From an uncultured Pseudomonadales bacterium (lineage in GTDB: Bacteria; Patescibacteriota; Microgenomatia; UBA1400; MFAQ01), in contig CAZBFU010000006.1 in assembly GCA_964491365.1 (NCBI GenBank), positions 1 to 34,165 of the forward strand: a DNA stretch of 34,165 bases. Reading direction: 5' to 3'. Numbering within the stretch: position 1 is the stretch's first letter; the number at the start of each line of letters is the position of its first letter. The notes under the pieces are model-generated. The model made no database searches. It was not told where the DNA came from and saw nothing but the letters and a program-made list of their open reading frames with translations. The position numbers were made by a program, and so were the translations under genes. Shown here in pieces: positions 65 to 17,791 of this stretch.

Positions 65-1741
65 ATGGTTACCCTTCGTTTAAGAACAATCATCCCCCTC
101 TTATTCCTCATCATTTTTACTTTATTTATTAGGCTATATAAACTTGACGTTGTCCCAGCCTCGCTTTTTGGAGATGAAATTGATGCCTCATATCACGCCT
201 GGTCTCTGGGGACCACCCTGCGTGATTATTCAGGGCAATTACTGCCTACCTATATACATAGTCTTTCAGAGTGGCGTGCCCCACTATTGATGTATGTTTT
301 AGCACCTTTTGTAAGTTTTTTAGGTCCGTCAGCTTGGTCTGCAAGATTACCCATGGCGATCTTGGGCACGGCCAGTGTCTTCTTGGTCTTTCTTATTTTT
401 CGAAAACTTTACCCAAAAAAATTTAGTGCTGCATTGCTTGCTGCCCTCTTTGTAAGCATCTCGCCTCTTCATTTTCACTACAGTCGAAATGCTGTAGAAC
501 AACCTCCACTTTTTTTCCTACTTACGCTTGGAATTTACCTATATTTACGCTTCAGACATAAGCTAAGTCACCTAGTATTATCTCTTATCGTATTTACTCT
601 GACTTTTTACACTTATTCTGTCGCCAATATACTTACGCCGTCAATTATTTTACTTCTCTTAATTTTCTTTCCCATCCCCAAAAAAGAGTTTCTAAATTGG
701 AAAAATTATCTGTACATGATTATTCCCTTATTGCTCATGCTCCCTATTAGTTTTCATCTCTTTTTTGGACAAGCAGCTGGGAGGTTCAAATTGATAAGTG
801 TGTTTTCTGACACCAAGTCTTCCGATCAAGTCGTCATTGATCGTATTAAACCCTGGGTAGCTGGTCAACCACTTGAGTTTGTGTACAACAATCGACCTTT
901 AGTAGTTTTAAGTAAATTTTCATCAAATTACTTGAACGCACTATCTTGGCAAAATCTATTTCTAACTGGCGATTCTAATTATCGTCAACAAGTAGATCGA
1001 TTTGGAAGTTTCCTAATTCTTACTTTACCTTTATTTTTATTCGGATTAATAAAGGTAATAACTGGTTCTAAAGAAGAAAAATTTCTTTGTTTTGTCTTGC
1101 TTGTAAGTCCAATAGCTTCAGCACTTACAGTAGATGGTTCCAATCATGCCTCAAGATTATTCTTCCTCATCTTCCCAGTCGCTTCAATTACTGCTCTTGG
1201 CGCAGACTCACTTCTAAACGTAAGTCACCTCAGATATTTAACATTCTTTTTTCTTAGTTTAGTTCTAATGAATTTTTCATCATATTTATATAGATATTTT
1301 TATCATTATCGATATGAATCTACTCATGTCTGGCAATACGGATATGAGGAGCTTTTTGCCAAAGCTAAGCCCTTCTTTGAAAATGCCAATCGTGTTTTCA
1401 TTAATAACACTCACGAACCAACACTATATCGTTTTGGATTCTATGCCGCCATACAACCAAGTGAGTTCCAGCAGTCATTTAGTAGTGATGTGCCACAAGA
1501 TCAGATTGTGCCTAATTTTAATGGTTTTGTTTTTGGAACTAAATATTATTTTGGAACAGCTGGCAATATCGACAATGTAATTAGCATGTTGCGAGAAGGT
1601 GATGTCTATTTAGCAGCTCAGGGAAAGGAAGTTCCAGGAGATTGGGATTTAGAAAAAGACCCCCCAAAAGAATTAAAAGTATTAGCGACTGTCAGAAATT
1701 ATCTAAACCAACCGTTGTTCTATGTCCTGGCTCTTCGCTAA
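65..1741 (+). CDS. ArnT/PMT-like GT-C fold integral-membrane glycosyltransferase (array paralog 1)
   Basis: 558-aa ORF with an ATG start and many hydrophobic helices. Motifs seen: loop-1 acidic motif GDEIDASYHAWSL, then SEWRAPLLMY, ARLPMAILG, HFHYSRNAVEQ, FYTYS, central loop NYLNALSWQNLFLTGD, and C-terminal soluble region WQYGYEELF...EPTLYRFGFYAAIQPSEFQ. The motif order matches the other paralogs. Confidence 0.75.
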   Translation: MVTLRLRTIIPLLFLIIFTLFIRLYKLDVVPASLFGDEIDASYHAWSLGTTLRDYSGQLLPTYIHSLSEWRAPLLMYVLAPFVSFLGPSAWSARLPMAILGTASVFLVFLIFRKLYPKKFSAALLAALFVSISPLHFHYSRNAVEQPPLFFLLTLGIYLYLRFRHKLSHLVLSLIVFTLTFYTYSVANILTPSIILLLLIFFPIPKKEFLNWKNYLYMIIPLLLMLPISFHLFFGQAAGRFKLISVFSDTKSSDQVVIDRIKPWVAGQPLEFVYNNRPLVVLSKFSSNYLNALSWQNLFLTGDSNYRQQVDRFGSFLILTLPLFLFGLIKVITGSKEEKFLCFVLLVSPIASALTVDGSNHASRLFFLIFPVASITALGADSLLNVSHLRYLTFFFLSLVLMNFSSYLYRYFYHYRYESTHVWQYGYEELFAKAKPFFENANRVFINNTHEPTLYRFGFYAAIQPSEFQQSFSSDVPQDQIVPNFNGFVFGTKYYFGTAGNIDNVISMLREGDVYLAAQGKEVPGDWDLEKDPPKELKVLATVRNYLNQPLFYVLALR

Positions 1742-3398
1742 CAAAAAATTACTGCTAATTTTTATCTTAGGTCTAGCACTTCGACTAATATCTCTAGGAT
1801 CTGTTCCAATCGGTATTTCCCAAGATGAAATCGGTCAAGGTTATACAGCCTATTCAATTTTAAAAACTGGATACGATGAGTGGGGAAGAACATTAAATTT
1901 CTCAACCTTCAAAGCCTTTGGTGACTACCGATCAACTCTCCAAACATTCTTAATGATTCCTTCTATTAGCCTTTTTGGTTTATCAGAATTTGCGATTCGA
2001 CTACCTAGTGCTATCTTTGGCTCACTCTCCGTCATCGTTATTTATTTCTTAAGTAATAAGTTATTTAGTAAATTAAATCCTGGCATCTATGCTAGTTTGA
2101 TTCTTGCTCTTTCACCCTGGGCTATTCAGTTTTCTCGATCAGCCCTTGAGGCAAATCTTTTCTTTACCTTTTTTGGTACTGCACTCCTACTGCTGATATC
2201 CCTTTCACATAAAACTAGAAACATAATCCTAAGCTTTATATTATTTGGTTTGAGTTTATATACCTACCATTCGGCAAAGTTATTTGTACACCTGTTTCTA
2301 TTTCTTTTTGTCATCTTGAATCGTAAAGATATATTCAAGTCAAACATTCGAGTTTATCTTACTAGTGCGGTGATTTTTTTATTACTGGCAACTCCTGCAT
2401 ATCTAGATAGTTTGTTTGGAGGAGGAAATAGTCGAGCTGCTAGTGTCCTGATCACTAATTTTTCCAAAGAAGAACTCTCAACTATTTCAGATCAGCAATA
2501 CTATTCAAAACTAAATAGTTTAAATCCAATCTTTTCAAGAATTCTCTCCAACAAAGTTTTGTACTCCATAGATAAATTTACTGAAAATTATTTTTCATAT
2601 CTTAGTCCATCGTTTTGGTTTACCGAAGGGGGAAGAGAAATTACTTATTCAACTTTCCCTGGAGTAGGTCTACTTAATCTCTTTACACTACCGTTAATTG
2701 TGATTGCTGGTATTTATTTATTTAAGAATCGCCACCATAAAATTCACCAATTACTAATCATTTGGTTAGTCTTAGGTATCCTACCTGCTGCCCTAACCAA
2801 AGAAGGATATCGTCCCAATCGTGTTGCCTCTTTGATGGGTTTACCTGAGTTGATCGCAGGAGTTGGCACGGCTATCCTCATAGAGTCTAAGTATTTCAAA
2901 AATAAACTGATTTTAATCTCAAGTCTGATATTTGTTTTACTTACCCTTTCTTCGTACTTTAATACATACTTTTTTACTTCTCCTATTCGATATCCTTCTG
3001 CCATGGCTTATGGATATAAATCGTTAGTGAACAAAGTAAATACTCATTCAAAAACATTCAGTAAGGTCATCATAGAAAAAGGAGACAACAATCATATTTT
3101 CTTTGCTTTTTACAGTAAGCTCGAACCGAAAATATACCAAGAAAATTCTCTTAATTGGGAGCAAAACATGAATCAATATCGACTTGGGTTTATTGATCAG
3201 CAAAGTCCATACCAGCTTGGTTCATATACTTACAAGAATATCGACTATCAAACTGATATGATGCCTGGTACTCTCTTGGTAATCAGGGGTCAAAATCTTC
3301 GTGATCAAGATCGTCCCCTTATTATTGATCAGGTTAACTATTATGATGGTAAACCTGCCTTCGTCCTCTTAGGCGTACCAAATAGCGCCAAATTATGA
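1722..3398 (+). CDS. ArnT/PMT-like GT-C fold membrane glycosyltransferase (array paralog 2)
   Basis: 558 aa with an ATG start that overlaps the upstream gene by 20 nt. Motifs seen: SQDEIGQGYTAYSILKTGYDEWG, GDYRSTLQTF, AIRLPSAIFG, PWAIQFSRSALEANL, LYTYHSAK, NYFSYLSPSFWFTEGG, and C-terminal MAYGYKS...NHIFFAFYSKLEPKIYQ. Confidence 0.8.
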   Translation: MSWLFANKKLLLIFILGLALRLISLGSVPIGISQDEIGQGYTAYSILKTGYDEWGRTLNFSTFKAFGDYRSTLQTFLMIPSISLFGLSEFAIRLPSAIFGSLSVIVIYFLSNKLFSKLNPGIYASLILALSPWAIQFSRSALEANLFFTFFGTALLLLISLSHKTRNIILSFILFGLSLYTYHSAKLFVHLFLFLFVILNRKDIFKSNIRVYLTSAVIFLLLATPAYLDSLFGGGNSRAASVLITNFSKEELSTISDQQYYSKLNSLNPIFSRILSNKVLYSIDKFTENYFSYLSPSFWFTEGGREITYSTFPGVGLLNLFTLPLIVIAGIYLFKNRHHKIHQLLIIWLVLGILPAALTKEGYRPNRVASLMGLPELIAGVGTAILIESKYFKNKLILISSLIFVLLTLSSYFNTYFFTSPIRYPSAMAYGYKSLVNKVNTHSKTFSKVIIEKGDNNHIFFAFYSKLEPKIYQENSLNWEQNMNQYRLGFIDQQSPYQLGSYTYKNIDYQTDMMPGTLLVIRGQNLRDQDRPLIIDQVNYYDGKPAFVLLGVPNSAKL

Positions 3399-5041
3399 AA
3401 AATCTATTAATATTATTTGTTATCCTAGTTCTTGGCGCCTCTGTAAGATTTTGGGATCTAGCTAAGTTTCCAATCTCATTAAATTGGGATGAAGTTTCAC
3501 TTGGGTATAACGGCTATTCAATTCTACTCACAGGTAAAGATGAATGGGGGACTAAGCTCCCCTTAATTTTTAAAGCTTTCGGGGATTTTAAACTTCCTGT
3601 ATATGTCTACTCCACCGTAGGATCTATTAGCTTGTTTGGATTAACTCCTTTTGCAGTTAGATTTCCTTCAGTAATTGCCGGTATTGTAGCCATTTTAGGT
3701 ATCTTCCTCCTTGCCCGCGAACTTTCTTTCTTTAAATCTGATCGTATAAGTCCCCTAGTCGCAGCTTTCATACTTGCTTTTATGCCATGGCACTTTTTCA
3801 TCTCTAGACCTGCTTTAGAAGCAAATCTTTCTTTGAGCCTTACTATCTTTGGCTTATATTTTTTGGTTCGCTCTCTTCAACGAAGTTTTAATGCCATAAC
3901 TAGTGCTTTATTCTTCGGACTAGCCCTTCATACTTACAATACCTCTAGAGTTTATATCCCACTCTTACTTCTAACTTTTGTCGTAATCTACTTCAAAAAA
4001 ATAAAGATAGATAAGTTTATTGTTGGTTCTGTAATTACATTATTTATTTTTATTGCTCCAATACTAATGCAAGTTATAACTGGTTCGGGGTTAGCACGAT
4101 ATTCTAAATTAGCAATTCTTAATGAATCTACAATTTATCAAATCGGGGAAGCAAGAAGAAATTCAAGTCTTCCTCCACTCATAGCTAAGTTTGTTCACAA
4201 TAAACCTATCTTTTTTGTAAATGAAACTCTAAAGAATTACATCTCCTATTTTTCTTTGGATTTCTTTAATCAGTCGAGAGGGTCTCAGTCTCAATTTGCC
4301 ATTCCCAACCATTCACTCTTGGGACTGCCAATCCTCATGCTCTTTATTATTGGCATCTTCAAAATGTTCCGCTTGTTGTCACTTCCTGATGGACGTTTTG
4401 TCGTTGCAATCCTTTTGCTCGCACCCATAGCAGCCTCATTAACATATGATCCACCTCAAGCCCTTAGGCCTACCCCTATGATTATTGGTATTACTTTAAT
4501 CGCCAGTGTTGGCTTTAAGTTGCTTTATTCTCTCTTGGGCAAGTTTAGAGTCGTACTAATTGGTCTAGTCATTTTCACAGTCTTCGTAAATTTTTATAAG
4601 TTTACCAATGACTATCGCACAAACTACACGACTGAATACGCTTCTTCATGGCAATATGGCTATGAGCAAGTCTTATCTCTCATGCATCGACATCAAGCTG
4701 ACAAGTATTTTGTCACCAAAAAACTAGGGGAACCTCATATTTTCTATGCGTTTTACGAACGAATTAATCCTTCCATACTCCAAGACGAAACAAGATCAGT
4801 AAGATTCGAGAAAAGTGCTTGGTATTGGACAGACAAGATTGATAACTTCTACTTTATCAATGATTGGCAGATACCCAATGGTAGTCATGTGACCAATTTG
4901 CCACTCGAAAGCGGTCAGCAAATTCCTTGTGCTGGATCTATTTTAATAACAACACCCCAAAAAGTGCCTCTAAACTTCCAACTCCTCGAAACAGTATACG
5001 ATCTAAAGGGTAATCCATATTTATTAATCGGCAGATTATAA
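3395..5041 (+). CDS. ArnT/PMT-like GT-C fold membrane glycosyltransferase (array paralog 3)
   Basis: 548 aa with an ATGA start/stop overlap with the upstream gene. Motifs seen: NWDEVSLGYNGYSILLTGKDEWG, GDFKLPVYVY, AVRFPSVIAG, PWHFFISRPALEANL, LHTYNTSR, NYISYFSLDFFNQS, and C-terminal SWQYGYEQV...EPHIFYAFYERINPSILQ. Confidence 0.8.
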   Translation: MKNLLILFVILVLGASVRFWDLAKFPISLNWDEVSLGYNGYSILLTGKDEWGTKLPLIFKAFGDFKLPVYVYSTVGSISLFGLTPFAVRFPSVIAGIVAILGIFLLARELSFFKSDRISPLVAAFILAFMPWHFFISRPALEANLSLSLTIFGLYFLVRSLQRSFNAITSALFFGLALHTYNTSRVYIPLLLLTFVVIYFKKIKIDKFIVGSVITLFIFIAPILMQVITGSGLARYSKLAILNESTIYQIGEARRNSSLPPLIAKFVHNKPIFFVNETLKNYISYFSLDFFNQSRGSQSQFAIPNHSLLGLPILMLFIIGIFKMFRLLSLPDGRFVVAILLLAPIAASLTYDPPQALRPTPMIIGITLIASVGFKLLYSLLGKFRVVLIGLVIFTVFVNFYKFTNDYRTNYTTEYASSWQYGYEQVLSLMHRHQADKYFVTKKLGEPHIFYAFYERINPSILQDETRSVRFEKSAWYWTDKIDNFYFINDWQIPNGSHVTNLPLESGQQIPCAGSILITTPQKVPLNFQLLETVYDLKGNPYLLIGRL

Positions 5042-5042: not shown

Positions 5043-5048
5043 TCACAC

Positions 5049-5744
5049 ATGCTTACGTCTCTCTCTATTTTTTTGCCAGCATACAACGAAGCGGACAATT
5101 TACCTGATCTTCTTAAGCAAATTCATGCATTCGCTTCTAAATCGCTGAAAAAATATGAAGTAATCATTATCGATGATGGTAGTACTGATAATACTCAAAA
5201 AATTGCCAGTAATTTAGTTAATCGTTACCCAAACACCAGAATCTTCACCCATCAACGAAATCTAGGTTATGGAGCAGCAATCAAAAATGGCTTAATTGAA
5301 TCAAAGTATCCCTGGGTATTTTTTATGGATTCAGATGGTCAATTTGATATCAAAGAACTAAAAGACTTTTTGGAATTTGATAAATTTGATTTGGTCGTGG
5401 GTTACAGAATTAAAAGAGACGATCCCCCAAGAAGAATCTTCGCTTCAAAAGTTTACGGACAAATAGTTAAGTTTCTATTTGGATTCAAGGTTAAAGATAT
5501 TGATTGTGCTTTCAAGCTTATGAATCGCCAGAAAGTTCTCGATCTAAATTTATATTCAGATAGTTTCTTTATTTCAACTGAACTTTTAGTCAAATCAAGT
5601 AGACAAAATTTAAAAGTCAAAGAAATTGGAGTTCATCATTATAAGAGAGCAAAAGGGGCATCTACGGTCACCACGAAAAGGGTCTTGGATTCATTGTTGG
5701 AACTTGCCAAGCTATTTCTCAATCTTCATAACCATAGGCGCTAA
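5049..5744 (+). CDS. GT2 polyprenyl-phosphate sugar synthase (Dpm1/GtrB/ArnC-like)
   Basis: 231 aa. Motifs seen: LSIFLPAYNEADNL, IIIDDGSTDNT, GYGAAIKNG, DSDGQFD (DxD) and KDIDCAFKLMNR, which matches the D-x-x-C/G-F-K-L motif typical of polyprenol-phosphate glycosyltransferases. It is the last gene of a co-directional block with three GT-C genes. Confidence 0.75.
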   Translation: MLTSLSIFLPAYNEADNLPDLLKQIHAFASKSLKKYEVIIIDDGSTDNTQKIASNLVNRYPNTRIFTHQRNLGYGAAIKNGLIESKYPWVFFMDSDGQFDIKELKDFLEFDKFDLVVGYRIKRDDPPRRIFASKVYGQIVKFLFGFKVKDIDCAFKLMNRQKVLDLNLYSDSFFISTELLVKSSRQNLKVKEIGVHHYKRAKGASTVTTKRVLDSLLELAKLFLNLHNHRR

Positions 5745-7239
5745 ACAAAGTTTCAAAATTCACGCCTTTTACTTCGTGTAACAAAGACATACCAGCACTA
5801 ACTGGTTCATGCGGAGGCATCTCATCGCTTCTACCTATCACAATGACGTCCTTGTCATAAAAATATCTTTGTTTATCAAATGGTCCAAAAGTGTAGTTAC
5901 CCATTTCGATTACTCTGTCGAATTTGGGATCTTTGTAGCCATTAAGAGCTGTTAATTGTGGTTTTCTAGAGTACATCATTTCTGGACTCGATCGTAAAGC
6001 GAATAAGATGTTTGGGTACAAGTCTCCACTTCGATCAAACCAGGCAATTCTTTTTCCACCCTGTTTACTCACCCAATCAACCATCTCCGACACGCCATAA
6101 TTCCACTCTCTTTGTTGGTTCTTTTGTAGCATTATTAATGCGTCATTCAGAGTAAATGCGGCTAGCAAAAGCACAATAACTAAGCCCCACTTATTTAATT
6201 TTGCCAGTCCCAAGCCGACTAAAATCACCATCGGAATAGCCAGTGGAAGGGCTCTTAGACTAGCAAAAGGATCGGCTGATAATGTTGCAGGAATTGGACT
6301 CAACAGTATCCAAAAAAGCAGCCAATACTTAAATTCCATATTTTTTAGTTTGCCAAATTGATAAATCCCTATCAACCAGAAGGGGAGTAGGAACCAATAA
6401 AAGGTAGCCAATCCCTCAAAATGTCTATGTCGAACCGGGTCTGGACTAAAAAATAAATTTTTAGGTGAGAAGTATGCAATGTAGTTTGCTGATACTTTTT
6501 CCGTAAATGTCCTACCTGTGGTTGCCTGATCAAATTTCCACAAAGATTTAATCCGATTGTTGCCAGATGCATCAGCAAGTGAAAAATACATGGGGCTACT
6601 CAACACCCCAAAAAGTACCAAGGCTATTAATAATTGCGTAATTTGTTTACGTTTATAAGTGAATAAATAACCCAACACTACCAAAGGTGTTAAGAACTTG
6701 TAAGTAATATAGCTATAGTTAGCCAAAACCAATGCGATAATTCCTCCTAGCAAAAAGCTGAGGTTTACTTTTCCCTTCAAGAGTAAGAGTATGCCCCAGA
6801 CAAAAAACATTAAACCTAAATTTGACTCAAATGCACCTCTACTAAAAAAAACTAGCCAAGGTGACCATAACGCGACCATGGCTGTTATCCACGCAATTTT
6901 TTTATTTTTTAGAAACTCGTTCACTAATAAATAGACACCAATCACGGTAAGTATGCCTGCCAATGCGCTCACTAATCGAAGCTGCCAAACTCCAACCCCC
7001 AAAATTTTAAAGGTCACTGCTAACAAATAGCCCATTGCAGGCAATTTAAAGTCAGCAAAAGCTCTAAATGTTAATGGCCAGGCAACCCCCCATTCATCTT
7101 TGCCATCTGCCGCCATACTCACTGCGTTGATGCCAAATGATGCTTCATCCATCGCTAATCCTGGTGGATTATTTACTAAATTTGAAAACCTAAAGAAAAT
7201 TCCGAATATAATTGCCAAGGCTAATATTATTTTGCCCAT
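5719..7239 (-). CDS. ArnT/PMT-like GT-C fold membrane glycosyltransferase (array paralog 4)
   Basis: The ORF track starts at a TTG at 7299. I prefer the ATG at 7239 (MGKIILALAIIF...). Motifs seen: AMDEASFGINAVSMAADGKDEWG, ADFKLPAMGY, PWLVFFSRGAFESNL, NYIAYFSPKNLFFSPD, and C-terminal EWNYGVSEMV...YPNILFALRSSPEMMY. The 3' end overlaps the convergent GT2 gene by 26 nt. Confidence 0.78.
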   Translation of the reverse strand: MGKIILALAIIFGIFFRFSNLVNNPPGLAMDEASFGINAVSMAADGKDEWGVAWPLTFRAFADFKLPAMGYLLAVTFKILGVGVWQLRLVSALAGILTVIGVYLLVNEFLKNKKIAWITAMVALWSPWLVFFSRGAFESNLGLMFFVWGILLLLKGKVNLSFLLGGIIALVLANYSYITYKFLTPLVVLGYLFTYKRKQITQLLIALVLFGVLSSPMYFSLADASGNNRIKSLWKFDQATTGRTFTEKVSANYIAYFSPKNLFFSPDPVRHRHFEGLATFYWFLLPFWLIGIYQFGKLKNMEFKYWLLFWILLSPIPATLSADPFASLRALPLAIPMVILVGLGLAKLNKWGLVIVLLLAAFTLNDALIMLQKNQQREWNYGVSEMVDWVSKQGGKRIAWFDRSGDLYPNILFALRSSPEMMYSRKPQLTALNGYKDPKFDRVIEMGNYTFGPFDKQRYFYDKDVIVIGRSDEMPPHEPVSAGMSLLHEVKGVNFETLFSAYGYED

Positions 7240-7697
7240 ACAGATTTTAGAAATGGATAAAGCATGCTTGCATAGATCCAGATAACCAAACTCCACCAAA
7301 ATTGATCAATACCAAATAAAGACACAACCACCAAAGTAGTCAGGAAGCCTACTGCAATTCTAGAATCATTATTTTTTAATTGTTTATATAGGCCATAGAT
7401 AAAAAGTATTATGAGGGGGTAAAAGATTCGTACTTTGTTGCTTGCCCCAGAAATTTCTCGAGGATGATTGCCATAAAAGTAATAGTTTGGGTCTAAACCA
7501 GTAAAAAACTGTTCCAAATACAAATTCATATACATCGTGGGCTTGTTCTGATTCAATTTCCCCAAAGCCGCATTTTCGTAGTACCCACGTCGCTGATTCA
7601 AAAAATACCAGTCCAAATTGTCTGTTTTAAAACTATTTTTACCCAAGGCAATACCCAACCAAATTAAACAGCCTAACCACAATCCTAGATATTTCAT
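7227..7697 (-). CDS. Small 4-helix membrane protein resembling only the central module of the GT-C paralogs
   Basis: 156 aa with an ATG start. There is an N-terminal hydrophobic helix and a loop of roughly 60 aa containing LYLEQFFTGLDPNYYFYGNHPRE, comparable to NYxxYFSPxFxFxxGD in the paralogs. Three further helices follow. It has no DE loop-1 motif and no C-terminal domain. It overlaps the downstream paralog start by 13 nt. Confidence 0.55.
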   Translation of the reverse strand: MKYLGLWLGCLIWLGIALGKNSFKTDNLDWYFLNQRRGYYENAALGKLNQNKPTMYMNLYLEQFFTGLDPNYYFYGNHPREISGASNKVRIFYPLIILFIYGLYKQLKNNDSRIAVGFLTTLVVVSLFGIDQFWWSLVIWIYASMLYPFLKSVWAK

Positions 7698-7708
7698 CCT
7701 TAGATAAG

Positions 7709-7716
7709 ATTATAAT
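7709..7716. promoter_or_regulatory. Palindromic ATTATAAT giving a TATAAT -10 hexamer on both strands of a 28-nt divergent spacer
   Basis: The + strand TATAAT is at 7711-7716, 9 nt before the ATG at 7726. The - strand TATAAT is at 7709-7714, 11 nt before the ATG at 7697. There is no Shine-Dalgarno motif on either side. Confidence 0.4.
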
Positions 7717-7725
7717 TCAAACCAG

Positions 7726-10328: not shown

Positions 10329-11878
10329 TTATCTGATGAGACTGCTAAGTAAGCTGTTTGCCCGTCTACAAAACTAAATTTCTTTAGTAGTTTATTTTTG
10401 TCATATGTGCCTTCTGTAATACTCCACTCAGATGCAATGATGACTGTGTTAGCAAGTTTACGTTCTACCTGCCAATCAACATTTCTAAAATCAAATTTAC
10501 CAAAACCACCATCTCTCTTTGTTTGTCGATATTCGTTCGGATCGACCTTGCCATAAAAAAGTAAATAAAACTCTGGTACTCCAAAAATATACGGACCTTC
10601 CTTGCCAAACCTAGGGTCTATTAGAACTTTTGTGTCACCACTTATAGAATGAGCATAAAGAGCTACTTCTTTCATTGGATCAAATTGCCAATGAGATTTC
10701 TCTGACTGATATACAACTGTATACATCAACACAAACATCACCACATTCATCATTACTAGTGAAACACCAAGTATTTTCCCCATCTTAATTTGCATCAATT
10801 TAGTCAAACCCAATCCTGCAATCACAGATAAAATTACACTAATGGGCAAGAGACGAAAGTTATGATAGTCATCCATGGTTATTGCACTAGGGATAGGGGT
10901 AATTAAAGTAAGCAGTACTAAAGTTTTCCAAGACACTATTTTTAACTTCTTTCGTGAAAGTGAGAAAAATGCCCACAAACCTATCCCAAAAATTGGAAAC
11001 AGCCAAATTCCCATCCAGCCCATATCCATATTATTTGTAAAGGTCATATTCATTCCTTTGGCAAAGTAGGCGGTAGGATCAAAAGCTTGTAAATACCGAC
11101 TCATTCCAATACTGATGGTTGCTCCAATTTTCGCATTACCTTCAATTGAACTTATCAGAGGGTCATTAAGGATGAACTTATCTCTAGCTCTGGTCTGAGA
11201 TGTTGGATTTATAGTTTGTAATAATGGTAAGCAAAATACGAGCATTAACAACATCCAAACTGAAAATACTTTAATGCGCTTTTTTATTTCAAATCTGTTC
11301 CACCAGATAATTCCAACTAGCATTATCATCGCCAATAATTTTTCGTTATGGTATGTGTACATCGACAATGGAAACAACAACAGAGCCCAATAATGCCCTT
11401 CTTTATCTATTTGATCTTGTAACCACACCAACCCAGCCAACAACAAGGCTAATGCAAAATTGCTTTCATAACCTCCTCTGGACAAAACGATCGTGAGGGG
11501 CATCGTAGCATAAATCAAACTAGCAGCTATGGCAGTTTTCTTCTCTTTATAAATATTACTTACCAATCGATAAATAAGGTAAACACTAAATGTTCCAGCT
11601 AGGGCAGATGGTAATCTAACCGCATATTCGTTTAGTCCAAAGAGTGCTTCGAATATCGCTACTACATAGATATATAGTCCAGGTTTATAGTCGCCCAAAG
11701 ATGGGAAAACAACGGGTAATAAATTTCCCAAATGGTCGCGACCTGTTTTTAAGATCGAGTATGCATCGTAGCCAATAGCGACTTCGTCTACATTCATACT
11801 ACTATTAAATCTATCTAGTCCAACAATACGCACTACTAGTGCAAAGACGAGAATTACTGCTAGCCAGTTAATTTTCAT
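10325..11878 (-). CDS. ArnT/PMT-like GT-C fold membrane glycosyltransferase (array paralog 5)
   Basis: The ORF track starts at a TTG at 11893. I prefer the ATG at 11878 (MKINWLAVILV...). Motifs seen: NVDEVAIGYDAYSILKTGRDHLG, GDYKPGLYIY, AVRLPSALAG, LSRGGYESNF, MYTYHNEK, RYLQAFDPTAYFAKG, and C-terminal HWQFDP...GPYIFGVPEFYLLFYGKVDPNEYRQ. Confidence 0.78.
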   Translation of the reverse strand: MKINWLAVILVFALVVRIVGLDRFNSSMNVDEVAIGYDAYSILKTGRDHLGNLLPVVFPSLGDYKPGLYIYVVAIFEALFGLNEYAVRLPSALAGTFSVYLIYRLVSNIYKEKKTAIAASLIYATMPLTIVLSRGGYESNFALALLLAGLVWLQDQIDKEGHYWALLLFPLSMYTYHNEKLLAMIMLVGIIWWNRFEIKKRIKVFSVWMLLMLVFCLPLLQTINPTSQTRARDKFILNDPLISSIEGNAKIGATISIGMSRYLQAFDPTAYFAKGMNMTFTNNMDMGWMGIWLFPIFGIGLWAFFSLSRKKLKIVSWKTLVLLTLITPIPSAITMDDYHNFRLLPISVILSVIAGLGLTKLMQIKMGKILGVSLVMMNVVMFVLMYTVVYQSEKSHWQFDPMKEVALYAHSISGDTKVLIDPRFGKEGPYIFGVPEFYLLFYGKVDPNEYRQTKRDGGFGKFDFRNVDWQVERKLANTVIIASEWSITEGTYDKNKLLKKFSFVDGQTAYLAVSSDK

Positions 11879-13067
11879 TACTATAAATATCAAAATAATC
11901 GCCGCTCAATAACACCATTTTTGGTTTATCTTGTAAATTTATCTTTTGTGTAATCTGTCTTGGAATAGTGAAAATTCCAATTAAAGTGATAGCCAAGCTA
12001 AGTATCACCATGAATAACTCAAGTTTGTAAGTTTTAGATCTAGAAATAATCATCGCTATCAGAACACTACCCATACCCCAACTAAATCTCTCAGAATCAG
12101 GAGAGTTTGCAATCAAGGGAACAATTGCACTGCTAAATAGTATTAACCAGAGGTTGAAGTTACTTTTATTCTTTAAGTAGTTTCCTAATGCCAACAGAGA
12201 AGCTATTGAAAAAAGTGGAATTAAGTAACTGTTACTAGCAATATTCATATCGCCTTTGCCAAACCAAAAAGAAGGATTAAGATAATACATCGATTTAGAG
12301 ACATAGTATGCCAACTGGCCAGATTTATTAAAAAATACTCTCCCAGATCCATTTATCGCTTTATCAGCGTATCCTCTAAATTTATTTGTATTATTTATAA
12401 ATTCTATTTCTCTAAATGACTTAGTCAGCTCATTTCTATAATAGTTTGTCCCATTAATAACAAAGGTATACATAACACTAATACCCAATACGATCAAAAA
12501 CCAACGCCACCCTTGTCTGGTTGTTACCAACCTTGCCAGTTCACCCAAAACAATAAACCAAACAAACAAGGGATTACTTAATAAACCAATCAAAAACAAT
12601 AATACTTTTAGCTGCAGTTGTTTTTTATTTAGGAGCCAATATCCCACCAAACAGACTAGAGCTATTTTTTCACTCCACAAGCCTGGCCAAAGCAAAATTG
12701 GACTTACTAATACGCTAAAGGTTAACTGCCAGGAAGTTGCAATTTTCATCAAGACAATACTTACGATCAAAAGTACTAATACGTCGGCAATCAACAAAGC
12801 GTTTTCCTTAAAAGCAAATTTAATTGGAATATAAAAATAAGTAGGCAAAGGCATTTCTAGTCCTGACGAGTTACGAAATGTCATTGGCCAATTCATTCCT
12901 CTCTCATCAACCCCAAAGGTAATCAAACTGTTTACTCGATAATCTAGCTGTAGATCCTCTTTCGCAAATCCTACCAAGTTCGTTATCAGAATCTTTATTA
13001 CCATCAGTAGTGCAAAAACCAAGATATACTTTTTATTCTGCACAATCATTGGGTTAATTATAGCCAT
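11868..13067 (-). CDS. Divergent, shortened GT-C-like polytopic membrane protein (possibly non-catalytic paralog)
   Basis: 399 aa. Loop 1 reads KEDLQLDYRVNSLITFGVDERGMNWPMTF, so ED stands in place of the family DE. The central motif YYLNPSFWFGKGD is retained. There is no C-terminal soluble domain. An alternative start is the ATG at 13049 (MIVQNKK...), which lies 7 nt downstream of a - strand TATAAT. Confidence 0.6.
   Translation of the reverse strand: MAIINPMIVQNKKYILVFALLMVIKILITNLVGFAKEDLQLDYRVNSLITFGVDERGMNWPMTFRNSSGLEMPLPTYFYIPIKFAFKENALLIADVLVLLIVSIVLMKIATSWQLTFSVLVSPILLWPGLWSEKIALVCLVGYWLLNKKQLQLKVLLFLIGLLSNPLFVWFIVLGELARLVTTRQGWRWFLIVLGISVMYTFVINGTNYYRNELTKSFREIEFINNTNKFRGYADKAINGSGRVFFNKSGQLAYYVSKSMYYLNPSFWFGKGDMNIASNSYLIPLFSIASLLALGNYLKNKSNFNLWLILFSSAIVPLIANSPDSERFSWGMGSVLIAMIISRSKTYKLELFMVILSLAITLIGIFTIPRQITQKINLQDKPKMVLLSGDYFDIYSNEN
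13057..13062 (-). promoter_or_regulatory. Candidate -10 box (TATAAT on the - strand) 7 nt upstream of the in-frame ATG at 13049
   Basis: The reverse complement reads ggcTATAATtaacccaATG. If used, it would give a leaderless transcript starting at the second Met of the 11868-13067 ORF. Confidence 0.3.
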
Positions 13068-13093
13068 AAGGTAGAATAAAAGTAGCCTTAACG

Positions 13094-14713
13094 ATGCACT
13101 TGTTCAAATCAAACCTCCTGTATTTAATAACGCTCATTACGATTGTCGCAATCGCTTTCTTTGTCAGGTTCGTTTCTTTATCTACCTTACCACCTGGATT
13201 AACCTGGGATGAGGCTGCCTTAGGTTACAACGCCTACTCCATTCTAAAAACAGGTCGAGATGAGCATGGAGTATTTATGCCACTTATCTTCAAATCTTTC
13301 GGTGACTACAAGCCAGGTTTGTATGTCTACCTGACGGTACCATTTGTCTCTTTACTCGGTCTAAACGAGGTAGCAGTCAGACTTCCATCTGTTATAGCCG
13401 GCACCTTAAGTGTTTTATTTCTATGTTTATTAGTAAATCAACTCTTCAAAAACAGAACACTTGGCTTATTTACAGCGTTTGCTCTTGCCCTTATGCCATG
13501 GCATATTCACTTTTCTCGTGGTGCTTGGGAAACCAATGTTTACGTCTTCTTTGTCATTTTAGCTACGTACTTATTTCTAAAAGCACAGACTTCAAATCGT
13601 TCAGTATTGCCATCAATATTAGTATTTGTCGCTACACTTTATCTTTACCAAGCGGCAAAACTCATCACTCCACTTTACCTAATTGGTTTATTTATCTTCA
13701 ATCGCTTGCATCAACCCACCTCACTTGGTCGCTTTATACGAAAAGAAAAACCAAAACTTATCTTCTATGTAATTTTGTTCGCCCTTGTAGCTTTTTATAT
13801 CTACGATACGTCTACTGGTCTTTCGGGTAACCGCTTAAGTCGACTTAGTTTGTTCAATTATCGTCCTACGACTTCAGATAGTGTCTATTTTCACTCAGTC
13901 CTCGATCAGTGGTGGCGAATGGTTTCCTCCCGCTATCTAAATCATTTTTCCAGCGAACTTTTGTTTAGTGGCAAAGTTCAAGTCATGCGAGACACCTTGG
14001 GTAAAATTGGTATGCTTCATCTAGTTGATGGATTTGCCATCTTTGCAGGGTTAGTATTTTTGATTACTAACCCCTTCAGACGCGCCTCTGTTTTAATTCT
14101 TTATTTACTCTTAATATCCCCGCTTGGAGGTAGCCTGACTCTAAGTGAATTTTCTACGGTCAGGTCATTAGTATTGGTGATTCCACTCGCGATGTTGATT
14201 GGTTTTGGACTGTACTATTTATCGATTAGATTTTCTCGACTTATATTTATACCCATCTTTTTGGTTTATGCCCACTTTGCCGTTTTAGATACTGATATTT
14301 ACTTGAATCACTCAGGCAGGTTATTGGCAGAAGGATTTAACAATGGTCATAAGGAGGCTGTCGCCATCATTCAAGCGACCAATCCAGACAAAATTGCTTT
14401 TACAGATGTTTATGGGCAACCATATATTTATTATCTTTTCTATACCCAATACGACCCAGCGAAATTCCAAAAATTAAGAAGCTTCAAAGATGGAGGAGTC
14501 GATGTTGGGTTTGTGCCAGGTTTTGCTAATGTTGAATTTAGACAGCCTCAGTATGGTGATTTGATCAATACTCCAAACAGTATTTTTGTTGGTACTTACG
14601 ATAATTTTCCAGACTCTTTTGATTTCAAAAAAGACTACATAGATTCTGTCACTGACGTGAAAGATTTAAGTGAGAAAATTGTCTTTAGAGTCATCAAAAC
14701 CAGTAAAAAATGA
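13094..14713 (+). CDS. ArnT/PMT-like GT-C fold membrane glycosyltransferase (array paralog 6)
   Basis: 539 aa with an ATG start. Motifs seen: TWDEAALGYNAYSILKTGRDEHG, GDYKPGLYVY, AVRLPSVIAG, PWHIHFSRGAWETN, LYLYQAAK, RYLNHFSSELLFSGK, and C-terminal QPYIYYLFYTQYDPAKFQK. A TAGAAT at 13072-13077 lies 16 nt upstream of the start. Confidence 0.8.
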   Translation: MHLFKSNLLYLITLITIVAIAFFVRFVSLSTLPPGLTWDEAALGYNAYSILKTGRDEHGVFMPLIFKSFGDYKPGLYVYLTVPFVSLLGLNEVAVRLPSVIAGTLSVLFLCLLVNQLFKNRTLGLFTAFALALMPWHIHFSRGAWETNVYVFFVILATYLFLKAQTSNRSVLPSILVFVATLYLYQAAKLITPLYLIGLFIFNRLHQPTSLGRFIRKEKPKLIFYVILFALVAFYIYDTSTGLSGNRLSRLSLFNYRPTTSDSVYFHSVLDQWWRMVSSRYLNHFSSELLFSGKVQVMRDTLGKIGMLHLVDGFAIFAGLVFLITNPFRRASVLILYLLLISPLGGSLTLSEFSTVRSLVLVIPLAMLIGFGLYYLSIRFSRLIFIPIFLVYAHFAVLDTDIYLNHSGRLLAEGFNNGHKEAVAIIQATNPDKIAFTDVYGQPYIYYLFYTQYDPAKFQKLRSFKDGGVDVGFVPGFANVEFRQPQYGDLINTPNSIFVGTYDNFPDSFDFKKDYIDSVTDVKDLSEKIVFRVIKTSKK

Positions 14714-16362
14714 AAAAAGCACCACTCTTGATACTCGCCATCTTTATTGGTCTAATCACCAGACTACCTTTTCTTTCCACTTACCCTAGTGGGCTTAACG
14801 CAGATGAAGCAGCCCTGGGTTACAATGCGTATTCACTTATACAAACTGGTAAAGATGAACACGGAGCAGCTTGGCCACTGGTCTTTCAATCTTTCGATGA
14901 TTACAAACCAGGAGGATACGTCTATTTGAGTTTGCCGTTTATTTATCTTCTTGGTCTTAATCCTTTAGCCATCAGACTACCTTCTGCATTATTGGGGATA
15001 TTGGCAATCTATTTTTTGGCTAAGCTCGTAGATCTACTTTTTGATCAGCAGCACCAACTTAAAATAGGAAAAATTACTTTTAGTCTTGGTGATGTCTCGG
15101 CTCTTTTCTTAAGTCTTTCGCCTTGGCATCTACATTTTTCTAGAGGAGCTTGGGAGGTAAATGCCTCGAGTTCGCTATGGCTTATTGGTCTTTTCTATCT
15201 GATTCGATTTATAAAAACTAAGAAGAACCCGATTGTGGGTATCTTACTTCTGATTTTTAGTATGTACACTTACCACTCAACTAGAGTCGTCTTACCACTG
15301 ACCTTAATCGCACTGGCTATTTTTTCAAGAGATCAAGTTGTTGAACTTTTTAAAGTAAGTAAAACGAGAAACTTAATATTTAAACTATTTGTGGTTTCAG
15401 TAATTCTGCTCATTCCATTGTCTATGCAAATGTTTTCTAAAGAAGGAAGGTCAAGGTTTGGTGGGGTCTCAGTGTTTGCCGATTCAGGCCCGCTTTGGGA
15501 AGCCCTTGAGTATCGTAATGGCCATGATAATCAAATATTAAATAAAGTCTTTCATTCAAAATACATAACTTATTCACGAAGGATACTAAGTAACTATCTA
15601 CTTCATTTTTCTCCCAAATTTCTCTTTGTCACAGGTGATGAAATTGCCAGAAGCAAAGTTCCTGGAGTAGGACAAGAGCTATTAGCGCTGTTACCATTGT
15701 TTGGTTTGGGTCTCTGGTACATGGTCAAACAAGGCAACTTCGCTTCAAAATTTATCTTGTCTTGGTTCCTCTTGGCGCCACTTGCTGCCTCTTTAACTTT
15801 CCAAGCCCCACACGCTCTTAGAGCTCAAAATATGATTTATCCACTAGTCATCATTTGTGGTCTAGGTTTCTACCAAGTCTTGATGTTGGTTCACCAGTAT
15901 AAGTTTAAATTTATTCTATTATTTTTGACTCTTCTATTAAGCTACGATTTTTCAAGATACCTCCACCAGTATTTTGTTCACTATCCAAAAGAGTTACCGT
16001 ATGCTTGGCAATACGGTTTTTCACAGATTAGTGATTACTTGACTATCAACCAAGAAAAATACTCTCAAGTTGTCATCTCAGATCGTTACGATCAGCCTTA
16101 TATACTTATTGCTTTCTTTCAAAAATATCCTCCTACTCAATTGCAAAAAGAAATAGTTCTTACTCCTCGAGACAAGTTCGGATTTTCAACCGTGAAATCT
16201 TTTTCCAAATATCAATTTAGAGCCATTAATTTTGAGCAAGATAAAGACTTAAAGAACACCCTTTTAGTTCTTGCAGATGAATCAGCTCCGGATGACAAAG
16301 TCATAGATACGATTAAAGATCCAGCTGGAAAAGTAATGTATCGTTTTATCGCTACTCCTTAA
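14710..16362 (+). CDS. ArnT/PMT-like GT-C fold membrane glycosyltransferase (array paralog 7)
   Basis: 550 aa with an ATGA overlap with the upstream paralog. Motifs seen: NADEAALGYNAYSLIQTGKDEHG, DDYKPGGYVY, AIRLPSALLG, PWHLHFSRGAWEVN, MYTYHSTR, NYLLHFSPKFLFVTGD, and C-terminal AWQYGFSQI...QPYILIAFFQKYPPTQLQK. Confidence 0.8.
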   Translation: MKKAPLLILAIFIGLITRLPFLSTYPSGLNADEAALGYNAYSLIQTGKDEHGAAWPLVFQSFDDYKPGGYVYLSLPFIYLLGLNPLAIRLPSALLGILAIYFLAKLVDLLFDQQHQLKIGKITFSLGDVSALFLSLSPWHLHFSRGAWEVNASSSLWLIGLFYLIRFIKTKKNPIVGILLLIFSMYTYHSTRVVLPLTLIALAIFSRDQVVELFKVSKTRNLIFKLFVVSVILLIPLSMQMFSKEGRSRFGGVSVFADSGPLWEALEYRNGHDNQILNKVFHSKYITYSRRILSNYLLHFSPKFLFVTGDEIARSKVPGVGQELLALLPLFGLGLWYMVKQGNFASKFILSWFLLAPLAASLTFQAPHALRAQNMIYPLVIICGLGFYQVLMLVHQYKFKFILLFLTLLLSYDFSRYLHQYFVHYPKELPYAWQYGFSQISDYLTINQEKYSQVVISDRYDQPYILIAFFQKYPPTQLQKEIVLTPRDKFGFSTVKSFSKYQFRAINFEQDKDLKNTLLVLADESAPDDKVIDTIKDPAGKVMYRFIATP

Positions 16363-17791
16363 CTTGTAGGAAGTATTTATCTAGCGGATAATTCTCTGCT
16401 TTATTGCCAACTATTTTTTCGCGTTGAGTAAGCAATATTTCTCCTTCAACTGCGCCTAAGTCATCATTCCTAGTTGGTAGTAGTTTTCCAAAGTAGACTG
16501 CTTGATAGAAGTTATTACTCTGGTTTGTTTTATCTCCAATAGTATTTGATATAACAGGATCTAGCTTTTTTTGTTCAGCTACTTTTTTTAGTACTTCAAA
16601 ATCTTTATATCCTTTCATTTCACCTACCAATGATTGGGTCACTCCAGGATAAGTCACAAAATAATATTTCAGAAAATCACCAAAGTTCAAGAAAGAAAGT
16701 AACAACAAAATTGTCACCAAGTATTTATAAGCTTTGCCTTTATAATCTCTAATCCAAACGATGCCATTAACAATCAAGAGAACCAACATTGGTAACAAAG
16801 CCAATAAGCGACTAAAACGGTGTTGCGAGCCTACAAATCCATAAAATAAGGGGGCAATGATCAAGCTATATAGAATTAATATTTTTGGATTATCTAATTT
16901 TTTCAGAATCGAAACCAAGCCAATCACTAAGAGGGGTAGGGTAGCCAGCAATAATACTCCATGCAGCCCGGTTGAATGATAAAGAGTGATATCTCCCCTC
17001 ACAAATAAATATGACCAGTCATAAGAGGATAAATAAGCGCTGGCTAGTTCATAAATAGAATTTCCAGCTGGCCTTGAACCACCCATTACAGCACCTGCAT
17101 AAAAGTGATCTAGTATTGGAATCATCAATACGAACGGTAAGATTGAAACGACAAAATACAAAACTTCAACACCAAACCACTTTTGCCACCCCACTTTTTT
17201 AACAATCATGATTATCGATAAAAATGACCACAAAGGTACTATTGCTCTCATCCCTTTATAGGTATAAAAAGCTACTCCCAAGGCTAATCCTGATAGAAGT
17301 AACCAATTTTTGGTACCAGTTTTTAGAAACTTCGAAATGGTCCATAGCCACAAAATCGTAAATGGAACAGGCATGATGTTGTCTAAACCTAGTCTTGCAT
17401 GAATAAAAAAGAGGGGAGATGAACCTAAAACTAAAACCGCCCAAAGTCCACTTTTCTTCCCTAAAACAGTTTCAGCTAATTTATAGATTAGCCACAAACT
17501 TATAACTGCGATGAGCACACTTGAGAATCGTAGCAAAAATACCGATGGACCAAATAATTTATACAAAAATACCACGAAATACTCGGTTACTGGCTGTCTC
17601 CAGTCTTTTCCTTCTATCGATAGTACAAAGACCGGCCATGATCTGCTATTTTCGTCTCGCCCAGTCTCACTTAATAGGGCAGCATTATAGCCAAAAGCCG
17701 CTTCGTCAACGGTTAATCCAGTGGGAACTTCTAAAAGCCTAAAGGTATATAAAAACGCAAAGATCAAAATAACAAACCATTTGTACAACAC
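16352..17791 (-). CDS. ArnT/PMT-like GT-C fold membrane glycosyltransferase (array paralog 8, more divergent)
   Basis: 479 aa with a GTG start at 17791 (no nearby ATG). Motifs seen: TVDEAAFGYNAALLSETGRDENS, KDWRQPVTEY, LLRFSSVLIA, FIHARLGLDN, FYTYKGMR and AYLSSYDWSYLFVRGD, followed by a short C-terminal soluble region. There is an 11-nt convergent overlap at the 3' end. Confidence 0.72.
   Translation of the reverse strand: MLYKWFVILIFAFLYTFRLLEVPTGLTVDEAAFGYNAALLSETGRDENSRSWPVFVLSIEGKDWRQPVTEYFVVFLYKLFGPSVFLLRFSSVLIAVISLWLIYKLAETVLGKKSGLWAVLVLGSSPLFFIHARLGLDNIMPVPFTILWLWTISKFLKTGTKNWLLLSGLALGVAFYTYKGMRAIVPLWSFLSIIMIVKKVGWQKWFGVEVLYFVVSILPFVLMIPILDHFYAGAVMGGSRPAGNSIYELASAYLSSYDWSYLFVRGDITLYHSTGLHGVLLLATLPLLVIGLVSILKKLDNPKILILYSLIIAPLFYGFVGSQHRFSRLLALLPMLVLLIVNGIVWIRDYKGKAYKYLVTILLLLSFLNFGDFLKYYFVTYPGVTQSLVGEMKGYKDFEVLKKVAEQKKLDPVISNTIGDKTNQSNNFYQAVYFGKLLPTRNDDLGAVEGEILLTQREKIVGNKAENYPLDKYFLQVKE

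Follow-up and report, generated by a model that had tools for sequence, protein, structure and literature searches.

A conserved, clustered array of GT-C glycosyltransferase paralogs in a candidate envelope-glycan locus of Collierbacteria-related Microgenomates

The first 34,165 bp of contig CAZBFU010000006.1 (hereafter the window, meaning the whole stretch of DNA that was analyzed) are densely packed with overlapping genes at a G+C content of 32-39%, and the first half of the window carries an array of paralogous polytopic glycosyltransferases of the GT-C class. These paralogs share a fold and an ordered set of motifs, they arose by ancient duplication, their gene order is conserved in related genomes, and they are linked in operons to genes encoding GT2 and GT4 glycosyltransferases and a flippase-like protein. 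With moderate confidence, we propose that they form a multi-step line for the extracytoplasmic assembly and decoration of a glycan, and that the window is part of a large envelope-glycan locus of Collierbacteria-related Microgenomates, which belong to the Candidate Phyla Radiation (CPR).

GT-C fold and catalytic motifs of the paralogs

The original prediction, made from the letters of the sequence and a list of its open reading frames (ORFs), had described about eleven ArnT/PMT-like paralogs between positions 65 and 17,791, two of them in reduced form. All eleven ORFs were found where it had placed them, and the gene boundaries were the same in independent calls on a near-identical contig (L085, Logan SRR5306409), in which D, F, G and K likewise encode 506, 443, 517 and 479 amino acids. 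Ten of the eleven encode GT-C proteins, comprising eight core members (A, B, C, D, G, I, J and K) and two divergent ones (F and H), whereas the remaining one, E, belongs to a separate family of small proteins. The genes of this part of the window are given below, where the letters A to M denote membrane ORFs and bit scores are those of Pfam models (PMT_2 is PF13231, with a gathering threshold of 26.1 bits; PMT is PF02366).

A, 65-1741, plus strand: core GT-C of 558 amino acids with a C-terminal soluble domain; PMT_2 47.6 bits, PMT 34 bits
B, 1722-3398, plus strand: core GT-C of 558 amino acids, overlapping A by 20 nt; PMT_2 51.9 bits
C, 3395-5041, plus strand: core GT-C of 548 amino acids, in the conserved C-I-J trio; PMT_2 38.3 bits
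gt2a, 5049-5744, plus strand: soluble GT2 of 231 amino acids, candidate polyprenyl-phosphate-sugar synthase; Glycos_transf_2 105 bits
D, 5719-7239, minus strand: core GT-C of 506 amino acids, partner of E; PMT_2 30.8 bits
E, 7227-7697, minus strand: small membrane protein of 156 amino acids, homologous only to one loop and three helices of a GT-C
gt2b, 7726-8616, plus strand: GT2 of 296 amino acids, moved relative to related genomes; Glycos_transf_2 65.5 bits
F, 8594-9925, minus strand: divergent GT-C of 443 amino acids without the C-terminal domain; PMT_2 22.4 bits (below cut-off)
s137, 9915-10328, minus strand: protein of 137 amino acids with one N-terminal transmembrane (TM) segment and several Cys; no Pfam or NCBIfam match
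G, 10325-11878, minus strand: core GT-C of 517 amino acids, loop-1 motif NVDEVAIGY; PMT_2 52.7 bits
H, 11868-13067, minus strand: divergent, shortened GT-C-like protein of 399 amino acids, with K-E-D instead of x-D-E in loop 1, no C-terminal domain and no Pfam match
I, 13094-14713, plus strand: core GT-C of 539 amino acids, in the C-I-J trio; PMT_2 39.4 bits, PMT 32.3 bits
J, 14710-16362, plus strand: core GT-C of 550 amino acids, the best-conserved member; PMT_2 17.2 bits (below cut-off)
K, 16352-17791, minus strand: core GT-C of 479 amino acids without the C-terminal domain, between J and gt4a; PMT_2 64.8 bits

In the Pfam scans, PMT_2 exceeded its threshold for A, B, C, D, G, I and K as well as for L, a further protein encoded downstream of the array, and stayed below it for F and J; neither E nor H was matched by this model. 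The PMT model scored 18-34 bits among the paralogs, and its cut-off was passed by A, B, G and I. Scanning the paralogs against NCBIfam gave only matches far below the cut-offs (Agl23, ArnT and LA_3751). All-versus-all BLASTP identified the eight core proteins as mutual full-length paralogs (23-31% identity, E values from 1e-12 to 1e-72; 25-30% for A, whose loop-1 motif is GDEIDASY, against the others), and this paralogy is far beyond chance. F, H and E gave marginal pairwise matches only. When profiles were aligned with hhalign to that of J, which served as reference for profiles and residue numbering throughout, D, G and K reached 100% probability and F 97.7% (E 1.7e-12, J residues 7-416). 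For H, the probability was 85% and the match was confined to residues 24-82, corresponding to loop 1; H additionally matched the central loop of D and J in BLASTP (E 1e-5 and 1e-4, respectively). The six ordered motifs that had been read from the translations in the original prediction are all visible in the alignment of the paralogs.

To obtain a structural view, J was modeled with AlphaFold2 from an alignment of J with 50 orthologs and the seven other core paralogs. The model (predicted local distance difference test score, pLDDT, 92.5; predicted TM-score, pTM, 0.92) comprises about 11 TM helices with extracytoplasmic loops that are themselves helical, and it ends in an alpha/beta domain spanning approximately residues 437-550. 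All 17 significant Foldseek matches of this model in the PDB were GT-C enzymes, headed by STT3 (E 1.7e-8) and including ArnT (TM-score 0.52-0.54; 5ezm and 5f15), followed by PglB, AglB, ALG9/ALG12 and Pmt4. A profile of the paralogs had ArnT as its sole match among PDB sequences (E 0.006). Profile alignment to 5ezm_A (numbering offset +3) placed K66 of J, within DYKP, on ArnT K85 of the KPP stretch, and E149, within GAxExN, on ArnT D158 of TLDMT. ArnT K85 and D158, together with D55/E56 of loop 1 and the arginine preceding TM10, are the positions through which enzymes of the GT-C/PMT clan bind the donor phosphate, the metal and the acceptor (PMC7801869).

Residue conservation was counted over 400 distinct members of the family, drawn from 80 related loci, and each position was judged only on those sequences that cover it. 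The loop-1 residues D32 and E33 (J numbering) were invariant (361/361), and this D-E pair directly follows TM1 in all eight core paralogs and in F, where it reads LDE; H carries E-D. Nearly as constant were D49 (358/362), R89 (366/371), Y188 (368/378), R249 (363/376) and R371 (377/385), the last of which lies two residues before the helix formed by residues 373-397 in the J model. Position 66 was K or R in 325 of 366 sequences and position 149 was E or D in 344 of 376. The assignment to the ArnT/PMT_2 clan made in the original prediction is thus borne out by Pfam, by the model and its Foldseek matches, by motif conservation and by the alignment to ArnT K85 and D158: the fold is that of GT-C glycosyltransferases, and the acidic pair of loop 1 is kept in every homolog that covers it. 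Judged by these residues, the core paralogs look catalytically competent. Identity between paralogs was highest from TM1 through extracytoplasmic loop 1 (38%), dropped to 21% in extracytoplasmic loop 4 (EL4) and was lowest in the C-terminal domain (19%), a pattern that would fit a shared chemistry directed at different acceptors.

Conservation of the array and of its possible small partner proteins

Among 8000 candidates scored, 2555 were homologous to J at E <= 1e-10. The best non-self homologs were 50-55% identical to J, and those bearing a name were mostly attributed to Candidatus Collierbacteria or labeled 'glycosyltransferase family 39' or 'ArnT-like'. Scanning one genome per species yielded at least 588 relatives, and all named ones among the best 80 were metagenome-assembled genomes (MAGs) of Microgenomates, namely of Collier-, Woese-, Shapiro-, Ames-, Blackburn- and Daviesbacteria. 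Searching 1.84 billion representatives with a profile of the core family recovered 7,082 clusters (50% identity; E <= 1e-30). The 10 kb on either side of the J ortholog contained 3-8 core genes (median 5) in 50 related loci of more than 20 kb, and one related locus, L002, packs nine core-family genes plus an F ortholog into about 17 kb. The array in the window is a typical, upper-range example of its class. The uniqueness implied by the original prediction was therefore overstated, given that such arrays are kept across the Microgenomates class, that L002 is equally dense and that automatic annotation routinely labels the genes 'glycosyltransferase family 39'.

Comparison with L002 also dates the duplications. 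The orthologs in this locus were 51% (A), 48% (B), 49% (C), 49% (I), 54% (J), 40% (D), 41% (E), 45% (F) and 41% (L) identical to the respective window proteins, and B orthologs in L002 and L004 fell within 47-48%. As the window paralogs are closer to their own orthologs (40-54%) than to their neighbors in the array (23-31%), the duplications are older than the split between these lineages, and every copy has since been retained. For H, the related loci yielded no ortholog.

The order of the genes around J is similarly conserved. Among 48 loci, C was located two genes upstream of J in 42 and I directly upstream in 40; on the other side, gt2b was the next gene in 42, gt4a the second in 40 and L the third in 35, usually followed by flp, gt2c and gt2d. 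Ortholog identity reached 62% for gt2b, whose N-terminal half resembles SunS and GmaR, and ranged from 48 to 64% for gt2c. Compared with this C-I-J-gt2b-gt4a-L order, the window reads as a rearranged and expanded form, in which C and I are separated by an 8-kb insertion (gt2a, D, E, gt2b, F, s137, G and H), and J and gt4a by K.

With regard to the host assignment, records of related MAGs (binchicken assemblies) are often titled 'uncultured Pseudomonadales' or 'uncultured Gammaproteobacteria bacterium'. One contig titled in this way, CAZDXN010000001.1 (L004/L005), carries a protein that NCBI names Candidatus Collierbacteria, and we therefore treat those titles as apparent mislabels. A further J ortholog (P0020, 53% identity) is attributed to Candidatus Wildermuthbacteria, a lineage of the Parcubacteria group and not of the Microgenomates, which could reflect mis-binning or horizontal transfer of the locus.

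The two ORFs that had been described as reduced forms turned out to be of different kinds. H is indeed a divergent and shortened protein with a partial GT-C match, whereas E is not a truncated GT-C and instead represents a conserved family of its own. By hhalign, this family matched the GT-C profile with 95.8% probability (E 7.9e-9) over J residues 252-389 only, that is, the EL4 loop and TM8-10. A homolog search with the single sequence returned E alone, and a profile was needed to recover the family, which has at least 44 clusters (P0121, a near-identical copy of E, and P0122-P0164). Most of these proteins are about 272 amino acids long, carry no Pfam domain and, where named, are called 'hypothetical'; they share the motif LDPNxYFFGxHPRE. 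In the related loci, all 16 E-like genes (16/16) were located directly upstream of a core GT-C gene on the same strand. The E ortholog of L002 (41% identical) precedes the D ortholog, and the E-like genes of this locus are found at 14884-15390 (minus strand) and 2801-3388 (plus strand). Conservation in 44 clusters and the constant position beside a GT-C gene indicate that the family is under selection.

A truncated pseudogene was considered and rejected for E in view of its orthologs, its 44-cluster family and the GT-C gene that invariably lies beside it. Likewise, the idea that E fills in a missing EL4 of its partner was unsupported: the EL4 segment of partnered GT-Cs is only a little shorter (median 34 versus 39 residues), and the EL4 of the unpartnered K, G and I is also short. 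Modeled alone, E reached a pLDDT of 64 and a pTM of 0.36, and Foldseek with this low-confidence model gave no meaningful match. One possibility is that E is an accessory subunit of a GT-C, and the family may thus point to an accessory-subunit mode of these enzymes; we know of no described split or heteromeric GT-C with a stand-alone EL4-module protein. Small genes resembling s137 were observed upstream of F orthologs in L002, L004, L012, L025 and L026, and s137 and F may be a second pair of this kind, composed of a small partner and a GT-C.

It is possible, if somewhat unlikely, that some members of the array, H and E above all, are non-catalytic, either as decaying duplicates or as scaffold or regulatory subunits of heteromeric GT-C complexes. 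H would be the prime candidate, given its E-D in place of D-E and its lack of a C-terminal domain, of a Pfam match and of an ortholog in the related loci, while E consists of EL4 and TM8-10 without loop 1 and modeled poorly on its own. Both genes are, however, intact ORFs with translationally coupled overlaps, the selection acting on the E family does not fit decay, and the eight core paralogs retain every catalytic residue.

A candidate glycan assembly line and its alternatives

Downstream of the array, the window continues with the following genes.

gt4a, 17811-18875, plus strand: cytoplasmic GT4; Glycos_transf_1 73.6 bits; PDB matches are generic GT4 enzymes
L, 18887-20023, plus strand: GT-C-clan protein of another subfamily, 378 amino acids from the ATG of public gene calls; PMT_2 36.6 bits
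flp, 20048-21319, plus strand: polytopic protein, weakly Wzx/MOP-flippase-like, with about 9 hydrophobic segments; Polysacc_synt 20.1 bits (below cut-off)
gt2c, 21240-22097, plus strand: soluble GT2, second candidate polyprenyl-phosphate-sugar synthase; start codon uncertain
M, 22090-23577, minus strand: TMTC-like, an N-terminal polytopic domain followed by C-terminal tetratricopeptide repeats (TPR); TPR_1 73.8 bits, Glucos_trans_II 24.9 bits (below cut-off)
gt2d, 23429-24595, plus strand: GT2 with C-terminal TM segments (residues 297-356), likely start near 23603; Glycos_transf_2 46.4 bits
Methylation genes, 24592-26835 (minus strand) and 30075-33043 (plus strand): a B12-binding radical-SAM (S-adenosylmethionine) enzyme beside an FNR-like FAD/NAD reductase, then four SAM methyltransferases

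Two of the GT2 enzymes are candidates for donor synthesis. In the PDB, gt2a matched ArnC (9hwj, E 3.5e-16) over residues 4-220, DPMS (5mlz) over residues 4-222 and GtrB (5ekp) over residues 4-163, and the only matches of gt2c were GtrB (E 7e-8), DPMS and ArnC. The NCBIfam matches of gt2a (ArnC, AglJ and PpgS) were all far below their cut-offs, as was the best one of gt2c, namely PpgS, a mycobacterial polyprenyl-phosphate N-acetylgalactosamine synthase, below its own. No hydrophobic segment was recognized in either protein. Because these scores are so far below the equivalog cut-offs, we refer to both as candidate rather than assigned synthases. L matched the NCBIfam model 'cell surface glycopolymer formation protein' below cut-off (33 bits), and PDB sequence searches with flp, L and gt2d gave no match.

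In the pathway that we favor, gt2a and gt2c would charge polyprenyl phosphate, on the cytoplasmic side of the membrane, with sugars taken from nucleotide sugars. A lipid-linked primer would be assembled by the GT4 and the remaining GT2 enzymes and then translocated by the MOP-like flippase candidate. Each GT-C might next, at the outer face, transfer a sugar from its polyprenyl-phosphate carrier to a distinct position or acceptor, using the loop-1 Asp-Glu pair together with conserved Lys/Arg residues that would bind the phosphate, so that the paralogs would jointly extend and branch one surface glycoconjugate, such as a wall polysaccharide or lipoglycan. C, I and J together with gt2b, gt4a, L, flp and gt2c could constitute the conserved backbone machinery of the class, with A, B, D/E, F, G, H and K as lineage-variable additions that diversify the product. 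The type of donor, the order of the steps and a single product shared by the paralogs are what we infer from this arrangement.

The genomic context, with a GT4, several GT2s, a Wzx-like protein and methyltransferases, resembles that of polysaccharide loci, and the conserved synteny with GT4, GT2 and flippase-like genes appears to favor glycan assembly over protein glycosylation, the two readings put forward in the original prediction. Several observations weigh against the proposed pathway. Among the ORFs of the window, none was recognized as an initiating phosphoglycosyltransferase, polymerase, ligase or GtrA-type flippase; the flippase label of flp is based on a sub-threshold Pfam match; and gt2a and gt2c lack membrane anchors and score far under every equivalog cut-off of NCBIfam. 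The core subfamily is without a characterized member, and sequence and fold cannot tell whether the acceptor is a protein or instead a glycan or lipid. In addition, the top Foldseek match of J is an oligosaccharyltransferase, and four paralogs (A, B, G and I) exceed the threshold of PF02366. Finally, the accessory paralogs vary between genomes and hence need not share one product.

Some of these points would be accommodated if the array were a set of protein O-glycosyltransferases (similar to PMT, TMTC or the streptococcal PgfM-like enzymes) that modify, with sugars from polyprenyl-phosphate carriers, Ser/Thr of different classes of secreted or surface proteins, for example pilins, S-layer proteins or disordered Ser/Thr-rich regions. 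This is the main alternative, and we consider it unlikely. Besides the above-threshold PF02366 matches and the Foldseek matches to STT3 and Pmt4, it would account for the D-E motif, which is a hallmark of PMT enzymes (PMC7801869) and has its counterparts in D55/E56 of ArnT and D77/E78 of Pmt1, for the match of gt2a to the PgfS model (58 bits, below cut-off), and for the presence of M, in which S-D-D follows TM1 (FLSDDVTG) and the GT-C domain is followed by TPR, as in the TMTC architecture. Streptococcal Pgf-type systems glycosylate surface adhesins (10.1101/2022.10.10.511621). Likeness to PMT (GT39) and TMTC (GT105) enzymes extends from the loop-1 DE/DD pair and the joint PF02366 and PF13231 matches to the 'glycosyltransferase family 39' annotation that NCBI gives to homologs. 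In contrast, the Foldseek matches to Pmt1, Pmt2 and Pmt4 are weaker than those to STT3 and ArnT, the C-terminal domain is a different one and the genomic context is of the polysaccharide type. We rejected an identity of the paralogs with GT39 PMTs, since Pfam detected neither MIR nor PMT_4TMC in any of them; reading the translations by eye showed no WWDYG-type oligosaccharyltransferase motif. Further arguments against a set of protein O-glycosyltransferases are the retained linkage to a GT4, GT2s, a Wzx-like protein and sugar-modifying methyltransferases, which is typical of polymer loci, and the lack of any candidate acceptor protein encoded in the locus. Nor is any bacterial protein O-glycosylation system known to use 8-10 GT-C paralogs.

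Comparison with other known systems yields partial likenesses, each with clear differences. With ArnT (GT83) and ArnC, the locus shares the GT-C fold, the loop-1 Asp-Glu pair, the sequence alignment of K66/E149 with K85/D158, a C-terminal extracytoplasmic domain and an adjacent ArnC-like GT2. It differs in that the sequence match is marginal (E 0.006), the J model has about 11 TM helices versus 13 in ArnT, ten paralogs are present versus one, and gt2a lacks the membrane anchor of ArnC. The best score to the NCBIfam ArnT equivalog (PRK13279) was 31.7 bits (for G) versus a cut-off of 567 bits. We therefore rejected the possibility that the paralogs are ArnT, also because their hosts belong to the CPR, whose members are generally considered to be without an outer membrane and lipid A.

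A parallel in pathway logic is offered by the mycobacterial and corynebacterial lipoglycan and arabinogalactan enzymes PimE, MptA-D, EmbA-C and AftA-D together with Ppm1/PpgS, among which GT-Cs act serially at the outer face on a single lipoglycan or wall polymer, with a donor made by a GT2, after GT4 steps and flipping. Lipomannan and lipoarabinomannan (LM/LAM) are made in this way by an array of GT-C enzymes that use polyprenyl-phosphate-mannose from Ppm1 (PMC3485146, PMC3123699). The LM/LAM enzymes nevertheless belong to another GT-C subfamily: AftA was a weak Foldseek match (E 0.011), and no Arabinose_trans or GT87 Pfam match was found. The genes in the window also differ from the mycobacterial ones in being packed into one locus. 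Mycobacterial GT-C genes are largely dispersed, with the exception of embCAB.

The combination of an enzyme resembling a GT2 undecaprenyl-phosphate (Und-P)-sugar synthase with outer-face GT-Cs is also reminiscent of GtrA/GtrB/GtrV, CsbB/GtcA/YfhO and GacI/GacL, three-component systems in which a GT2 Und-P-sugar synthase works with an outside-acting GT-C (PMC5836110). GtrA (PF04138) was not matched by any ORF of at least 100 amino acids in the window, and no match to the YfhO or GtrII models of Pfam rose above threshold. A three-component Gtr or CsbB-YfhO system was rejected, as there is no GtrA, gt2a and gt2c have no TM anchors, and 10-12 GT-Cs are present instead of one. Lastly, the eukaryotic ALG3/9/12/6/8/10 enzymes with DPM1/ALG5, RFT1 and the oligosaccharyltransferase present the same logic of cytoplasmic GT4/GT2 steps, flipping and serial paralogous GT-Cs, the latter using dolichyl-phosphate sugars; Foldseek retrieved ALG9 and ALG12 with the J model at E of about 1e-5. 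The window differs from this system in its bacterial operon clustering and GT-C subfamily, and no oligosaccharyltransferase was recognizable.

Alternatively, the paralogs could be a choice of decorating enzymes as in Gtr serotype conversion, each adding a separate side-branch to a common polymer instead of working one after another, with lineage-specific gain and loss varying the surface for host recognition or phage escape. In agreement with this, only C, I and J are fixed in position, the other members (A, B, D/E, F, G, H and K) differ from genome to genome in whether and where they occur, the number of core genes near J ranges from 3 to 8, the window itself carries insertions between C and I and after J, and the two candidate donor synthases could supply two sugars. 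This explanation overlaps with the assembly line that we favor and would explain its lineage-variable accessory paralogs; as a reading of the whole array, we nevertheless find it improbable, since most accessory paralogs have orthologs of 40-51% identity in distant genomes (indicating that they have been kept over long times and do not turn over rapidly), 19 contigs from several samples carry the locus in near-identical form, and no phase-variation repeats or mobile elements were noticed, albeit without a systematic search for them.

Full-text literature on GT-C-type enzymes in CPR, Patescibacteria, Microgenomates or Collierbacteria yielded no description of such an array or subfamily, and one Microgenomates genome paper remarks only on '29 glycosyl transferase genes'. 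The literature searched thus contained no characterized homologous locus, in agreement with the original prediction. The paralogs belong to a known enzyme class and represent a large uncharacterized subfamily that is unusually expanded and clustered, and conserved across a class of ultra-small bacteria. Their product cannot be inferred from sequence.

CPR bacteria, or Patescibacteria, account for a large share of bacterial diversity; the members examined to date are found attached to other cells, and next to nothing is known about CPR surface chemistry. With 10-12 GT-Cs, two candidate lipid-sugar synthases, one flippase-like protein and numerous genes for GT2, GT4 and methyltransferase enzymes, the locus is a major investment in a genome that measures about 1 Mb, which makes it a concrete candidate for the machinery of the dominant surface glycan. 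Going further, one could imagine that Microgenomates devote about 2% of their ~1-Mb genome to a conserved pathway in which up to a dozen GT-Cs build an envelope lipoglycan or polysaccharide, as an independently arisen analogue of LM/LAM and possibly the main determinant of host attachment, with the E family providing trans-acting subunits for particular GT-Cs; we regard this extended scenario as quite doubtful. Given that the subfamily comprises 7,082 clusters without a characterized member, establishing the biochemistry of just one of them would provide an annotation for thousands of proteins. Furthermore, the contrast between the conserved loop 1 and the divergent EL4 and C-terminal regions provides a natural system for studying acceptor choice by GT-C enzymes.

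Gene packing and flanking genes

The public gene call places the start of D at the ATG at 7239. Convergent genes in the array overlap at their 3' ends by 26 nt (5719-5744), 23 nt (8594-8616) and 11 nt (16352-16362), and divergent pairs are separated by only 19-28 bp (7698-7725, 13068-13093 and 17792-17810). With gaps this short between divergent genes, their promoters must sit within coding sequence. Scans of the window for tRNAs and Rfam families gave no match.

The best matches of the B12-binding radical-SAM enzyme were HpnJ, BchE and PhpK-type methyltransferases, and one of the four consecutive SAM methyltransferases is of the FkbM type. The pair of radical-SAM enzyme and reductase recurs in a related locus (L035; 71% and 50% identity, respectively). 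These genes suggest that the sugars of the product are C-methylated or carry many methyl groups. Additional GT2 and GT4 enzymes are encoded in the rest of the window. In its last 8 kb (26000-34165), which contain one GT4, two GT2s and methyltransferases, the G+C content is 0.32-0.34 compared with 0.35-0.39 elsewhere and the GC skew flips its sign; this segment may represent a glycan module that is variable or was acquired separately.

A polytopic ORF at about 33030-34165 (plus strand) is open for at least 377 amino acids and runs off the 3' end of the window. It had no Pfam match even at E <= 1 and could encode another glycan-processing membrane enzyme. Together with E, it brings the count to the 14 polytopic candidates in 34 kb that had originally been put forward as an upper figure, the other 12 being proteins of the GT-C clan. 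The locus also extends upstream of position 1 of the window, where the near-identical contig L085 (17615-20471) carries two further GT2 genes, a gene for a polytopic protein of 376 amino acids, which has no Pfam match and overlaps the start of A with its 3' end, and a gene for a membrane protein of the PTPS_related family (PF10131), a family counted in a paper on TMTC among those homologous to GT-C/PMT enzymes.

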